Shown: positions 224 through 20,000 of the stretch, in pieces | Numbering within the stretch: position 1 is the stretch's first letter | How the letters are laid out: the number at the start of each line of letters is the position of its first letter | IMG/VR virus record: IMGVR_UViG_3300037166_000075 | Reading direction: 5' to 3' (one strand) | DNA: 20,000 bases | Source: an uncultured virus (IMG/VR IMGVR_UViG_3300037166_000075) | Taxonomy: Duplodnaviria; Heunggongvirae; Uroviricota; Caudoviricetes | Notes under the pieces: generated by a model | What the model was told of the DNA's origin: nothing | Database searches by the model: none | The model's input: the letters and a program-made list of their open reading frames with translations, nothing else | Program-made: the position numbers and the translations under genes

Positions 224-604
224 ATGCTCACCGGCCTCTGCACCGCTCTTGAAGCCCAGCCGGCCCCGCCGCTGGTGGTGATCCCGCGGCCTTATCCTGA
301 GTTCGCCGGCGACCTCGACCCGGCGAAGTTGCCGGCCACGGGGCTTCCGCGGAGCGACACCTACCAGTCGCTCGCCGCGCGCCGGGTCCGCGAGACCCGG
401 CAATGGGTCCGCGACGCGATCTACGAAGGCCGGCACTACGAGGCCAGCGAAGAGGTCCGGCTCGCGCTACGGGCGCTCCGGTACTGGCAGCGCCGCCTCG
501 TGCTGGCCCCCGTGCACGATGCGATGCGAGAGCAGCGGCGCCTGCAGCGTGTCGTCGATCTGGCGCGGCGCGAGACGCCGGCCGCGCTGCTGGCCGCAGA
601 ATAG
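224..604 (+). CDS. hypothetical phage protein
   Basis: Operonic packing after 25..222; its TAG stop lies within the left copy of the 8-bp target duplication. Confidence 0.65.
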   Translation: MLTGLCTALEAQPAPPLVVIPRPYPEFAGDLDPAKLPATGLPRSDTYQSLAARRVRETRQWVRDAIYEGRHYEASEEVRLALRALRYWQRRLVLAPVHDAMREQRRLQRVVDLARRETPAALLAAE

Positions 605-628
605 GGGAATTATATAGATGACTCCCTC
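605..628. repeat. left terminal inverted repeat
   Basis: 22/24 match to reverse complement of 1259-1282. Confidence 0.95.
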
Positions 629-1252
629 TAATCATTTCAGAATCGGTCTAGTGGCCGAAGCGTCTGAACTGGTGGAACGATTTCACTACAGCGGCCGTGT
701 GCCTGCCAACTTGCAATGCGTTGGGACTTGGCATGCGGATGGCGGACTGTTCGGAGATCAAGGTCAAGTGATAGCCGCGTGCTTCTTTTCTATCCCGCCG
801 ACACGATGGTCCGAAGATGTCTGGGAATTATCGCGTTTGGTGCGCCGGGATGACGCGGCGGTATCGTTGACCGGCCTGATAGCTGCGACCGTGCGTTTCC
901 TGGCCCGTAGGAAGGCCATGGACCTGTTGGTGTCGTTCGCCGATGCCACGCATGGGCACCACGGGGCATCTACCAAGCGGCTTCATGGGCTTATGCGGGG
1001 CAGCGTGAACGGCGACAGGACGGCCTGATGATTAACGGAGTTTTCCATCCTTGTCGATCTTGTAACTCTCGTTGGGGAACGAGTTCCCCAACGAAATTAG
1101 CCATCCGGTTGCCGGATCACACGATTGAACCGCATTGGGATGACGGCAAGCATCTCTATTGGCGAGCATTGAATAAATCTGGTCGTGCAAAGGCTAAAAG
1201 GTTGGGCTTGGAAGCGTTGGCATATCCAAAACCACAATGGGCAGCGTTATGA
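618..1252 (+). pseudogene. mom: Mom-family (GNAT-fold) adenine modification protein, split by a -1 frameshift at the G4 run 963-966
   Basis: Motifs FHYS, WELSRL, LLVSFAD..HGHHG in frame 1; GIYQAASWAYAG, GKHLY and C-terminal YPK in the -1 frame; one extra G restores H-G-G-I-Y-Q-A. Confidence 0.8.
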
Positions 1253-1258
1253 GGGAGC

Positions 1259-1282
1259 GAGGGAGTAATGTATATAATTCCC
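1259..1282. repeat. right terminal inverted repeat
   Basis: 22/24 match to reverse complement of 605-628; contains TATAAT at 1273-1278. Confidence 0.95.
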
Positions 1283-1300
1283 CAGAATAGGGAGATCGTC

Positions 1301-1777
1301 ATGGACACCAACGTCACCGACACCGTTCGGTCGGAAATCACTGACATCATGGTCGGCGCCTGCACGGCCAGCATCTATCGCACCGGCAGCGTCTACCTGC
1401 ACGGCGGCAGCATTGGCGGCGGTTGCACCATCATCGATCCCGAGCACATGGACGACGCCATCACCGCTCTGACCGCTGCGCGCGATGCCAGCGCCGACCT
1501 GAAGCCGTTGCCGGTCGCCATCGCTGAGGCCAGCAAGCTGATCGACCAGGCGAAGAAGCTGCTGCTGCCCGTTGAGCACGATCTCGGTGTCGAAGCCAGC
1601 GCCGCCGGCGATGCCGATGAGGATGTCGCCGGCGCCTACGTGGACGCCCAGACCGACATGGCCAGCGCCCTCGGTGAGCTGGGCGGCGTGCTCGACGGGC
1701 TGCGGCTGATCTCGTCCGGGATCGCCACCGCACGCCGCTACCGCGCCGAGGCGGCGAAGTCGCGCGCCGCGGCCTGA
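1301..1777 (+). CDS. hypothetical protein (helical, Ala-rich)
   Basis: GGGAG RBS at 1290-1294 favours ATG 1301 over 1268, which lies inside the TIR. Confidence 0.7.
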   Translation: MDTNVTDTVRSEITDIMVGACTASIYRTGSVYLHGGSIGGGCTIIDPEHMDDAITALTAARDASADLKPLPVAIAEASKLIDQAKKLLLPVEHDLGVEASAAGDADEDVAGAYVDAQTDMASALGELGGVLDGLRLISSGIATARRYRAEAAKSRAAA

Positions 1778-8857: not shown

Positions 8858-9222
8858 TGGTCGATCGTCCCATCATCTTCAGCGCGCCCATGATCCGCGC
8901 GCTGTCTGCCGGCCGGAAAACGCAGACGCGCCGGCTGGCAATTCAGCAGGTGAGGCGCCGGGTTCGGGTTGGCGAGCCGACGGTCGTGATCGTTGAACGG
9001 CCGTCGCCATGGCAGAGGGTCAAGCCTGGGGATCGCCTGTGGGTGCGAGAGGAATGGCGGGTTGGTCGTCGCTGGGATGCGACCAAGCCACGCAATCTCC
9101 CTCCACGCGCCATGACAGTGATGTTCGATGCTGGCGGTTCCGTCGCGAATGAAGGTATTGGCAAGGGCTGGCCCAAGGGCCGGCGGCCTGAAGCGACCCG
9201 AAATTGGGAAGAGAGAACATGA
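8857..9222 (+). pseudogene. ASCH/PUA-like phage protein, C-terminally truncated
   Basis: RPIIFSAPMIRAL..GRKTQTRR and PGDRLWVRE present; the usual downstream PSIHMPR..SR.TL....VERLQDI half is absent. Confidence 0.65.
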
Positions 9223-10571
9223 GAAACAGGACTGACCCACTTGAGGCGCGCGCCCGGGAACTGGCGATGGCGGCCGGGAAGAACCCGGATGACCGTGTCA
9301 CCGTTCCCGGTAAGCCGCGCGGCATGCCGACGTGGTGCCTGTACCGCGGCGATGCCCGCGTCGAGCAGAATGCCCGCGAGCAGTCTGCACTGGCAGCGGA
9401 GAACGCCAGTCTTCGCCCGCAGGCGCCGCAATACCAGGATGGCCCGCTTACCGTCCTCGGCGCACACGACTACGCCACCATCGAGCAGATGCGGAACTGC
9501 ATGAAGGTCGGCAACGTCGTGGCCGGCGTGATCTGTGCTGATGGCCATCTCGGCTATGCGCAGCCCGTTGGCGGCGTCGTTGCCTATGAGCGGCAGGTTT
9601 CCATCTCTGGCGTGGGATTCGACATCGGCTGCGGCAACATGGCCGTACGGCTCGACGTTCCGTTCTCGACCATCGAGGATCGGGTCGGCGCGATCATGGC
9701 CGACATTGCGCACGTCGTCTCATTCGGCATCGGACGGCCGAACGGCGAGAGAGTCGAGCACGAGCTGCTGGACGATACCGAAGCGTGGGCGGCCTCCGGG
9801 ATGGAGGAGTACCGGCCGAAGGCGGCGGCGCAGCTCGGCACGGTCGGTGGCGGCAACCACTACGTCGATCTGCTGCGCGACGAGAGCGGCCTGGTGTGGA
9901 TTGGGGTCCATTTCGGCTCGCGTGGCCTCGGCCACACCACCGCGACGAAGTACTTGAAGCTGGCGGGAGGCAAGGACGGCATGAACGTTCCGCCCGCCAT
10001 CGTGGACGAGGACTCCGACGTCGGGCGTGCCTACCTCGCCGCGATGAAGCTTGCCGGGCGCTACGCCTACGCCGGGCGGGAATGGGTGTGCGAGCGTGTC
10101 CGCCGGATCATTGGTGGAACCGTGACGGATACCGTGCACAACCACCACAACTATGCCTGGCGCGAGCGGCACGCCGATCGTGATCTCTGGGTTGTTCGCA
10201 AGGGCGCCACTCCCGCCTTCCCCGGCCAGCGTGGTTTCGTCGGTGGCTCCATGGGCGACGACGCCGTGATCCTTGAGGGCGTCGAGAGCGAGCAATCGAA
10301 GGCAGCGCTCTACTCCACGGTACACGGTGCCGGGCGCTTGTTCGGCAGGAAAGAAGCCAAGCGACGCTTCGCCCGGCCGGAGATGGACTCCTGGTTGCGC
10401 GAGCGCGGCGTCACGCTGATCGGCGGCGATCTCGACGAAAGCCCGATGGCCTATCGCCGGCTGCCGGATGTCCTGTCGGCGTGTGCCGACAGTGTCCGGG
10501 TGCTGCATACCCTGCGCCCGGTCGGCGTGGTCATGGCCGGGGAAGGCGAATTCGACCCCTGGAAGGACTGA
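9219..10571 (+). CDS. rtcB: RtcB-family RNA 3'-phosphate/5'-OH ligase
   Basis: DGHLGY..PVGG, GFDIGCG, LGTVGGGNHY, HFGSRG, HHNY, RKGATPA, STVHGAGR, DESPMAYR all intact. Confidence 0.95.
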   Translation: MRNRTDPLEARARELAMAAGKNPDDRVTVPGKPRGMPTWCLYRGDARVEQNAREQSALAAENASLRPQAPQYQDGPLTVLGAHDYATIEQMRNCMKVGNVVAGVICADGHLGYAQPVGGVVAYERQVSISGVGFDIGCGNMAVRLDVPFSTIEDRVGAIMADIAHVVSFGIGRPNGERVEHELLDDTEAWAASGMEEYRPKAAAQLGTVGGGNHYVDLLRDESGLVWIGVHFGSRGLGHTTATKYLKLAGGKDGMNVPPAIVDEDSDVGRAYLAAMKLAGRYAYAGREWVCERVRRIIGGTVTDTVHNHHNYAWRERHADRDLWVVRKGATPAFPGQRGFVGGSMGDDAVILEGVESEQSKAALYSTVHGAGRLFGRKEAKRRFARPEMDSWLRERGVTLIGGDLDESPMAYRRLPDVLSACADSVRVLHTLRPVGVVMAGEGEFDPWKD

Positions 10572-17688: not shown

Positions 17689-20000
17689 TTAATACGTGCT
17701 CAGCGCCGCGCGCTTCCAGGTGTTGGCAGCCGTGCAGGCGTAGACGTAATTGGCGTCCACGCCGACCTGCCCGGCCGTGCAGGTCGCATTGTCAGCAGGA
17801 GTGCCTGGCGTGACGCGCAGGGTATCGGCGGACACGCCTCCGGTCAGAGCCACGCCACCGCTGGTGAGATTGATGGCGCCAGTGCCCGCCGATATGGACA
17901 TGGACGTGTTGAGTATCGCCGTCCCCGTCGCGGTCACATAGCCGGACCCGAACGTGACCGACGGCGCCGTCGTGTAGCCAGAGCCGGCGGCCGTGATCTG
18001 CGTCGTCGCGATGGACATGCCGATACCGCTGGCGGACCCGAGCGTGGGCGGCGTAGTGCAGGTGCCGCCCGTCAGCAGCGCCGGCTGCGCGGGAACGACC
18101 GTATAGTCGATGTCGCCGAAGGTCGGTCCGAACGTCGCGACCGTTCCCCCAGTCCCGATCGTCAACACCTTGAGCCGCTGCGGATTTGAACCGATGTACC
18201 GGCCACCCTGAACAGAAAGGATGTCATTCACCGAGCATCCCGCGCCTAACGACAGAAGATTTGTCGTATTATAAGGCCCGGCAATGAAGACGCTCGTGGT
18301 AACGGCCGTTGCCTGTGTCCCGCCAACCGGGGGCGCACCTAGTGTAATCGACGGAAGGGCTGCCGAGCCGAATGGATAGAAGTATTCTCCACCGCTGTTC
18401 GTGAGATTGATGCTTCCGACGCTGCCGGTGCTGTTTATTGTCCCCACCGTAAGAACAGGCGGCGGGCTCCACGTTGGCGTAGCCTCGTAGCTCTGCCAGC
18501 CCGCGCCGAGGTTCACTTCGCCGGTGAACTCGGCGCTGGTCAGGTTCCAGTTGTTGGCATCGGGAAGCGAGAAATGTCCATCCACGGTCCAAGGGATGGC
18601 GGGGTTGAACATGGTCGCGCCAACAGTATCGACGCCGATCCAGACATTCGCGTCCGTTACCGTGGCGGAGGTGATCCCCGCGTCGCTGCTGAACACGCTG
18701 CCCGTCGCGTAGCTGTGCTGCGTCGCGAGCGTGAACTTCTGCAACAACGGGGTCGGGTTCGTCCCGGTCAGAAAAACCAGGTCCGTGAGGGGCGGCGTTT
18801 CTTCGTAGCCGAGGTCCAGGTCATACACGCGCGAGTTCGGGACCTCGTAGACCGTTACCCCGTGCCTATTCGGCGCGACCGGCAGGAAGTTGATCGATGC
18901 ACCCTGGGCAACCCCGCTTCCCGTCACCGCCTGCGAGAGCGTGAGCGAGGCGCTGTTGATGATCGACGCGATGGTTGTGCCGGCCGGAATATTGGTGCCG
19001 GTCACGGCGAGGCCAGTGAGCAACGTCGATGTCGGCACCGAGAGGGTCGTCCCGGAAGCCGTTGCCGCGGTCGTGGCCAGCGACGTGCCGGCCTGGGAGT
19101 TGCCCATGTAGGTATCGCCCCGGCCGTAGTGGTGCCGGGCGGCGGGGGCCGATTCCCACAATGGCGAACCGCCGCCGCTGGTTTCCAGGGCGCAGTTCGT
19201 GCAGGAAAACTCGTTGAAGCTCGTCGTGCTGCCGTTGTAGTTGACGACCGTCTGGAACGCGCTGGAAATATTCCAGTGATCCAGCCCGTCCTGGATTAGC
19301 GCGTACGCGGTGGGAGAGAGGTATCCATTGCTGGAAAATACCTTGGTGAACTCCGTTCCTTCGGCGGCGCCGTTGTAGATTGCGCCGTTCACGAAATTCC
19401 CGCTCACCGCGACGCTATCGAAGTGGTGCAGGTCCGCGGCGAGTCCCGACGAAATCCGGCCGAACTGAATGCCGTAAAGCGGCGTCGCCGCCGTATCCCC
19501 GTAAACCGAGAAGTCCTTCAGGTGCAGGAACCGGGAACCGAGGGCGTCGATCACCGGGAACGGCGAGAAGCCGACCGTCGCGCCCTGGGCGACGCCTGCC
19601 CCGGTGACCGGCTGCGAGAGCGTGAGCGACGTGCTGTTGATGATCGACGCGATCGCCGATCCCGCGACGATGTTCGCCCCGGATACCGGCATTCCCACCG
19701 CCAGCCCCGTCGTCGGGATGGCGAGCGTCGTGCCCGTCGTCGTGGCGGCCGTGGTGGCGAGCGATGTGGCCGCCGGAGACTTCCCCCAGATCGACGCGCC
19801 CGCGCCGTCGATCATGAAAAGCTGAGACTGAAAGCCCGTCCAGTTGATGCTGGATTTGACGACGGCATGGCACCCGGCCAGCGTCATCGACACCGCGCGC
19901 TGGTTGCCGGTGGTCGCAAGCTGCGTGCGCACGGCCGCCGCCGCCAGGTTGAACGCGCCGCTGTCGTCCGTCGCGTTGTCGCACGCCGCGCCGAACTCGC
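17689..20000 (-). CDS. tail fibre/tailspike-like receptor-binding protein (5' end outside window)
   Basis: Frame is open to the window edge with FGAACDNATDDSGAF (pectate-lyase-like beta-helix start); G/S/T-rich; C-terminal G....D.NYVY.C...NTWKR.AL motif. Confidence 0.8.
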   Translation of the reverse strand, partial: EFGAACDNATDDSGAFNLAAAAVRTQLATTGNQRAVSMTLAGCHAVVKSSINWTGFQSQLFMIDGAGASIWGKSPAATSLATTAATTTGTTLAIPTTGLAVGMPVSGANIVAGSAIASIINSTSLTLSQPVTGAGVAQGATVGFSPFPVIDALGSRFLHLKDFSVYGDTAATPLYGIQFGRISSGLAADLHHFDSVAVSGNFVNGAIYNGAAEGTEFTKVFSSNGYLSPTAYALIQDGLDHWNISSAFQTVVNYNGSTTSFNEFSCTNCALETSGGGSPLWESAPAARHHYGRGDTYMGNSQAGTSLATTAATASGTTLSVPTSTLLTGLAVTGTNIPAGTTIASIINSASLTLSQAVTGSGVAQGASINFLPVAPNRHGVTVYEVPNSRVYDLDLGYEETPPLTDLVFLTGTNPTPLLQKFTLATQHSYATGSVFSSDAGITSATVTDANVWIGVDTVGATMFNPAIPWTVDGHFSLPDANNWNLTSAEFTGEVNLGAGWQSYEATPTWSPPPVLTVGTINSTGSVGSINLTNSGGEYFYPFGSAALPSITLGAPPVGGTQATAVTTSVFIAGPYNTTNLLSLGAGCSVNDILSVQGGRYIGSNPQRLKVLTIGTGGTVATFGPTFGDIDYTVVPAQPALLTGGTCTTPPTLGSASGIGMSIATTQITAAGSGYTTAPSVTFGSGYVTATGTAILNTSMSISAGTGAINLTSGGVALTGGVSADTLRVTPGTPADNATCTAGQVGVDANYVYACTAANTWKRAALSTY
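18880..19767 (-). repeat. two 207-bp (69-aa) internal repeats in the tail fibre: 19561-19767 and 18880-19086
   Basis: TSLATTAAT..GTTL..PT..L..G..V.G.NI.AG..IASIINS.SLTLSQ.VTG.GVAQGA...F.P in both copies, no gaps. Confidence 0.9.

Follow-up and report, generated by a model that had tools for sequence, protein, structure and literature searches.

How a gene related to the DNA-hypermodifying enzyme Mom of phage Mu came to lie almost flush between insertion-sequence ends in a phage operon, and whether it can still serve the phage there, is the question raised by a short segment of the uncultured tailed virus IMGVR_UViG_3300037166_000075, of which a stretch of 20,000 nucleotides (the window) was analysed. 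With a probability that we put at roughly 0.8, the segment would be a non-autonomous cassette of the IS1595 family that was moved in trans, rides a phage operon and is now broken. The features on which the argument turns are the following.

224 to 604, plus strand: phage gene upstream of the cassette, 126 aa, without a family match over cut-off, uninterrupted by the insertion
597 to 604, plus strand: left copy of the target duplication, CAGAATAG, which includes the stop codon of the upstream gene
605 to 628, plus strand: left terminal inverted repeat of IS1595 type, containing the cargo start ATG (618)
618 to 1028, plus strand: Mom-family gene, N-terminal part (Pfam Mom E 6.9e-10; PHROG Mom-like E 1.8e-13)
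963 to 966, plus strand: frameshift site, one base lost in a G run within the conserved HHGGIYQ motif
968 to 1252, plus strand: C-terminal part of the Mom-family gene, read in the shifted frame and closing with the YPKP tail of the family
1259 to 1282, minus strand: terminal inverted repeat on the right, matching the left one at 22/24 positions
1283 to 1290, plus strand: right copy of the target duplication, CAGAATAG
1301 to 1777, plus strand: downstream phage gene, 158 aa, no family, uninterrupted and with its own ribosome-binding site

The 24-bp ends, identical at 22 of 24 positions, and the perfect 8-bp target duplication reported in a preliminary description of this locus were reproduced; the inverted repeat was also detected de novo, and the ends delimit a cassette of 678 bp (605-1282) with a GC content of 54%, compared to 67% in the genome bin and about 70% in the flanks. 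The left duplication copy matches an A/T-rich target pattern seen in 61 relatives. Chance can be excluded as the source of the ends, since a search of the 3.9-Mb bin with up to six mismatches to the 24-mer returned three matches, all on the phage contig C85 (the two cassette ends and one more at C85:39501), and since dozens of unrelated contigs have these ends too, together with exact 8-bp duplications. The TAG that closes the upstream ORF lies within the left duplication, and the downstream ORF opens with the ATG at 1301, preceded by GGAGA; an outward ATG (1268) inside the right repeat is in frame with this next gene. These ORF boundaries agree with the clean junction proposed to arise when the element is removed, a junction that is a reconstruction, the empty allele not having been found. 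The claim that one mom-like gene fills the cassette almost completely holds for the identity of the cargo and fails for a single open frame, which the one-base loss at 963-966 interrupts.

The end motif, ggnnatTAT, is one that we take to be characteristic of the ISNwi1 group of IS1595. An 18-base motif of the cassette ends was found in at least 122 stretches of viral contigs and a degenerate 22-mer in at least 133; the exact 22-mer had 44 matching stretches across 596 billion bases of prokaryote genome sequence, and the degenerate one occurred in none of 300 genomes of the bin's family, which, with patterns that differ between the scans, may point to a phage bias. Defining elements by paired ends and a duplication of at least 7 of 8 bases gave 61 distinct ones and then nine more among the matches listed; flanking DNA was taken for 80 loci per viral scan, and the degenerate 22-mer scan favours short elements because it used short flanks. 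Among the matches listed, 36 of the 70 distinct duplication-flanked elements matched a 305-aa transposase wholly or partly and 34 were without a transposase. All three transposases examined from these elements belong to the IS1595 family (NF033547/PF12762), and six autonomous elements share 45 of 48 end bases with the window cassette, the best end match, so that autonomous IS1595 elements with near-identical ends, which had been named as something to look for, do exist in other contigs. Duplications of 8 bp are usual for IS1595 elements, and monophyly of ISNwi was not recovered, according to PMC8101967.

Within 605-1282 there is a passenger gene and, as originally described, no transposase. 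A cognate transposase was found neither in the circular phage C85 nor in the 81%-complete bin, whose five IS1595 genes were rejected as candidates, being at best 27-32% identical; the one among them with clear ends has different ends. No close autonomous relative was found among cultured phages either (best 35.5%). The notion of a minimal module mobilised in trans is thus upheld for the class, which has matching autonomous elements, but not for a transposase in the same genome or for a working cargo.

The transposase genes of the autonomous relatives (L011:1105-2505, L070:2514-4661, L081:2514-4589 and others) avoid the codons TTA, CTA and TCA: 27 of 31 genes, all related to each other, contain none of them, and CTA plus TCA were seen 12 times with 88 expected. 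The strand opposite these genes is stop-free, and in 15 of the 31 the frame that starts at the ATG of the end covers 92-100% of the element, passengers included; such a frame may make insertions non-polar. Two of four IS1595 genes of the bin that served as controls (GC 64-66%) were also without such stops, and the stop-free opposite frame was therefore rejected as a unique trait of this lineage. That it encodes a separate protein was not supported, as its 1360 cluster matches lie mostly over the transposase. A strand classifier based on dipeptides got 7 of its validation cases right and 31 wrong, left 24 undecided, and was dropped.

C85, filed with the genome bin, is a circular contractile-tailed phage; the contig has 61,912 bp and a 25-base terminal overlap and encodes terminase, portal, sheath, tape-measure, baseplate, helicase and endolysin genes. 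In the window, the cassette lies in a rightward operon of small genes without an assigned family and recombination-type genes, which confirms the phage operon context claimed for it, and by its gene content this operon is probably an early one. A GGGGA ribosome-binding-like site (604-608) stands 9 nt before ATG 618 in the left end, the only start ahead of the point where homologs begin, and translation of the cargo would start there. No forward promoter-like site was found in positions 1-2000 of the window. In the 13 cassettes with scanned flanks, the upstream gene was co-directional with the cargo in 8 of the 9 cases that were informative, the downstream gene in 5 of 7. Contigs from an RNA library cover 654-1135 and 1163-1512, such contigs being no proof of transcription, and contigs of run X19 cover the cassette flanks only. 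Outside the window, the same phage holds a single related end at L131:15502-15860 (C85:39501), next to a truncated N4/N6 methyltransferase that is fused into another phage gene and interrupts it; such a decayed second cassette suggests repeated arrival and loss.

The Mom-like nature of the cargo, proposed from the letters alone, is borne out by the family matches of its two parts and by those of its relatives. The N-terminal part scores 39.3 bits against Pfam Mom PF25680 (cut-off 27.1); the C-terminal part aligns to positions 120-202 of PF25680 at E 9e-4, below the cut-off, and is 53-73% identical to intact phage homologs. Among PDB sequences, a profile of cargo-family proteins matches Mu Mom alone (8BV8, E 1e-5); L156, the intact homolog closest to the window gene, reaches 76.4 bits against PF25680. 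The structure model of L156 (pLDDT 91.6) finds 8BV8 as its best Foldseek match (E 4e-9), followed by a GNAT protein (3e-5), and the intact homolog is accordingly predicted to have a GNAT fold with the Mom-type insertion. The window gene has the family profile, the fold and five key residues in common with Mu Mom (H58, Y59, R111, D149 and Y159), with S124 replaced by T and W181 by F; it differs in being frameshifted and in belonging to a mobile cassette in an early-type operon. Expression of mom in Mu is late and tightly controlled, and an active Mom enzyme makes 6-NcmdA in a reaction that depends on Gly-tRNA. At the position of Mu R151 the window gene has T and other Mom-cassette lineages have S or Q. 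Mutagenesis found R151 to be essential in Mu Mom, and mutation of Y159 drastically lowers the activity of the enzyme, whose modification of adenine blocks restriction (PMC13219725). Since R151 is not kept and the window Mom is only about 20% identical to Mu Mom, the chemistry of the cargo may differ; by analogy with Mu, an intact cassette Mom would most likely modify adenines of phage DNA and so blunt host restriction.

The window copy is another matter. Its N-terminal part is in register to about position 962, after which an out-of-frame tail runs to a stop at 1026-1028, and the lesion was assigned to the G run at 963-966, as the loss of one base, because other homologs are unbroken across HHGGIYQ. 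Separate searches with the two cargo halves matched 7 and 23 viral loci, three of the contigs being the same phage, and all 20 other-phage loci with close homologs have an unbroken gene and no such ends. The frameshift sequence is identical in five other assemblies (L133, L134, L135, L175 and L176, 99.98-100% identical to C85), for which reason a sequencing error was rejected as its source, though the five may share one habitat, peat according to the run listing. The equivalent of Y159 falls after the frameshift, so that the gene as written could not deliver a working enzyme, contrary to the earlier claim that the window cassette delivers a Mom gene. In a codon comparison with L156 (77% identical, 198 codons), pS was 0.84 and pN 0.16, by which the gene appears to have been long under purifying selection and broken recently.

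A cassette that still functions, with the G run acting as a switch that limits a toxic enzyme through slippage, ribosomal frameshifting or halves complementing each other via the TGATG stop/start overlap at 1026-1030, would account for that overlap, for the presence of just one clear lesion in a gene on which purifying selection has otherwise acted in the past and for RNA-library contigs over the gene, with the caveat on such contigs given above. The G run is just four long, however; no length variant appeared in the five other assemblies or in contigs of four sequencing runs (contigs drop rare variants), the two halves would miss the stretch with the Y159 equivalent, all close homologs are unbroken, and a second near-invariant residue is altered in the window copy (G to C in GRSCN). 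We regard a switch of this kind as very unlikely, and the window copy is most likely a dead cassette, an inactive passenger.

Whether the unit has ever moved as such is a separate matter. Empty-site alleles in related phages, which had been suggested as a check, were not found: the right junction pattern returned three viral contigs, all carrying the cassette, the downstream protein returned the same three, 60 relative genomes gave short chance matches only, the upstream protein matched none of 200 family genomes, and contigs of four runs contained no joint skipping the element. A pattern of end plus YPK matched 3 viral and 16 metagenome stretches, including two metagenome copies of the window cassette at the same site, and gave no second site for it; the pattern misses most Mom cassettes, since the L186 and L190 matches are out of frame and were lucky finds. 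Copies at other sites, also suggested at the outset, were not found in these searches for the window cassette itself but do occur for sister cassettes, the C5-methyltransferase pair L022/L084 and the Mom pair L190/L186.

L190 is a 616-bp element with the duplication CTTTTTTA and an intact 188-aa Mom gene. In L186, whose DNA is 90% identical to that of L190, the right flank differs and the left end lies off the contig. Of the 17 viral loci related to L190, 14 have no such ends and L238 has one; the remaining two, L235 and L237, are cassettes flanked by duplications. The left end of L237 is cut to 13 bases, and L238 (2447-3136), 90% identical to cassette L237, has a Mom gene with one end between the copies of a 27-bp direct repeat, possibly an intermediate of capture or of decay. 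A third, distant Mom occupies the 628-bp cassette L296. Intact Mom cassettes are hence found in two other Mom lineages, one of them at several sites, which substantiates the proposed class of Mom-carrying mobile cassettes. In a tree of 34 proteins, which has long branches and unsettled bootstrap values, the label of having ends changes at least four times on well-supported branches, and the grouping of all end-flanked Mom genes in a single clade is rejected (p-AU 0.014), which makes at least three captures of Mom from genes resident in phages most likely.

These data also bear on the alternative that the mom gene was resident, with two insertion-sequence ends or a decayed autonomous element coming to lie around it in place and the unit never having moved. 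The one known site of the window cassette, the homologs that are resident phage genes and the odd intermediate L238 would all suit such a capture in place; yet a single 8-bp duplication round the whole unit is not what two separate insertions would give, the GC content of 54% departs from that of the flanks, and sister cassettes sit at several sites. We consider this alternative most improbable.

Under the preferred reading of a cassette moved in trans, a resident phage mom-like gene would have been enclosed almost flush by two IS1595 ends, and a transposase from an autonomous relative, probably on another, co-infecting phage, would have acted on them. Insertion would have taken place at an A/T-rich 8-mer ending an early phage gene, which is seen duplicated, with both neighbouring genes left intact. 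The left end provides a ribosome site and an ATG, through which the cassette would be expressed from the phage operon, and the intact cassette would have modified adenine as Mu Mom does and so weakened host restriction, until the loss of one base at 963-966 turned it into an inactive passenger.

What the cassettes carry in general was addressed by a census of 33 relatives that lack a transposase and were retrieved solely through their ends (L190, obtained with a Mom-directed pattern, was left out; L283 was unscanned and two had no ORF). Among the matches listed, a DNA modifier exceeded the Pfam cut-off in 10 of the 33 and no such match was seen in 23: Dam in L018, C5 methyltransferases in L022 and L084, N4/N6 methyltransferases in L024, L043, L063, L212 and L305, and Mom in the window cassette and L296. 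L022 and L084 represent a single C5-methyltransferase cassette found at two sites, where the duplications differ. For 6 of the 10, the longest frame begins with the ATG that lies within the left end. Several cassettes other than these ten are of note. The cargo of L192:1783-2532 is PAPS-reductase-like (PHROG 424) and likely a DNA modifier, as are, by a PPC motif recognised by eye, those of L318:1512-2072, which has no Pfam match, and L085. The PPC motif is typical of C5 methyltransferases. The cargo of L258:379-1020 belongs to a viral family without a name (nearest named cluster DUF6610, score 0.92) and was judged by eye to be a putative transglycosylase-like barrel. A TnpB (IS605 OrfB) gene lies between these ends in L303:95-1436, and miniature elements of 171 bp, gene-free but with these ends and 8-bp duplications, were seen at L118:301-471 and L191:949-1119.

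It is conceivable that the cassettes are selfish or neutral, modifier and Mom cargo being common because genes of this kind are dense in the early regions into which the element inserts, or the cargo acetylating something other than DNA, with no anti-restriction benefit. Both cassettes of phage C85, at the window locus and at L131:15502-15860, are broken, many short cassettes hold phage genes of no named function, and R151 is not retained, all of which fits this explanation. It is harder to reconcile with at least three captures of Mom and with DNA modifiers of four enzyme families in 10 of 21 cassettes of at least 500 bp (among the matches listed, and with no background rate for comparison in this census), and we judge it unlikely. 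A wider reading, which we hold tentatively and at a little less than even odds, is that a phage-specialised IS1595 lineage acts as a general shuttle for DNA-disguise enzymes, with 24-bp ends that double as translation signals, and that phages swap anti-restriction chemistry by transposition. Such a shuttle would offer a ribosome site and ATG at one end and stop and restart codons at the other, making a captured early gene a plug-in, non-polar operon unit; its cargo would comprise Mom, at least three times, as well as Dam, C5 and N4/N6 methyltransferases, and its stop-free opposite frame would let ribosomes through.

Cassettes without a transposase are already known, as are inverted repeats around restriction-modification genes, and a Mom-carrying cassette was not found in the literature searched. 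Short inverted ends starting with GG and an 8-bp duplication are shared with IS1595 insertion sequences, transporter ISs and mobile insertion cassettes (MICs), and the autonomous relatives share the DDE transposase with an N-terminal zinc ribbon (PMC8101967); a passenger gene without a transposase is shared with MICs, an established category (PMC3129680). In contrast to these, window-type cassettes were found mainly in phage contigs, their cargo begins inside the end with no subterminal IS DNA and is here a DNA-hypermodification enzyme, and in the autonomous relatives a frame opposite the transposase is kept free of stops. Furuta, Abe and Kobayashi (2010; PMC2853133) described restriction-modification genes that lie between inverted repeats and are accompanied by 8-bp duplications. 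Those units resemble the window cassette in combining DNA-modification genes, inverted repeats and an 8-bp duplication and in possibly being moved in trans, but they are chromosomal restriction-modification genes with 65-bp repeats in Xanthomonas and 26-bp repeats in Neisseria and with demonstrated empty sites, whereas the unit in the window, for which an empty site was not found, consists of one orphan Mom gene of GNAT fold and belongs to a phage. The earlier remark that no described Mom-carrying MIC is known agrees with our finding none in a literature search that had most subscription journals outside its scope; the main text of the Mom paper (PMC13219725) contains neither 'transpos' nor 'insertion sequence'.

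These cassettes offer a concrete, testable route for the spread of orphan DNA-modification genes among phages and widen the cargo of IS1595 cassettes that lack a transposase beyond methyltransferases, to a tRNA-dependent hypermodifier family. Because it is probably dead, the window copy matters mainly as a pointer to others: the intact sisters L190, L235 and L296 are candidates for new adenine chemistry since they lack Mu R151, and the 24-bp ends are a simple hook for mining DNA-modifying enzymes in viral metagenomes.

Other parts of the phage hold further observations. Positions 9204-10571 of the window encode a phage RtcB RNA ligase (Pfam E 4e-66), which could possibly counter RNA-cutting defences. 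The stretch 17987-20000 extends past the end of C85, and the tail-fibre region differs between assemblies, as only about 200 of these bases wrap round to the C85 start (96% identity). At L131:3304-6744, a portal protein of 1147 aa is fused to a DarB-like or lytic domain and a head-morphogenesis domain.
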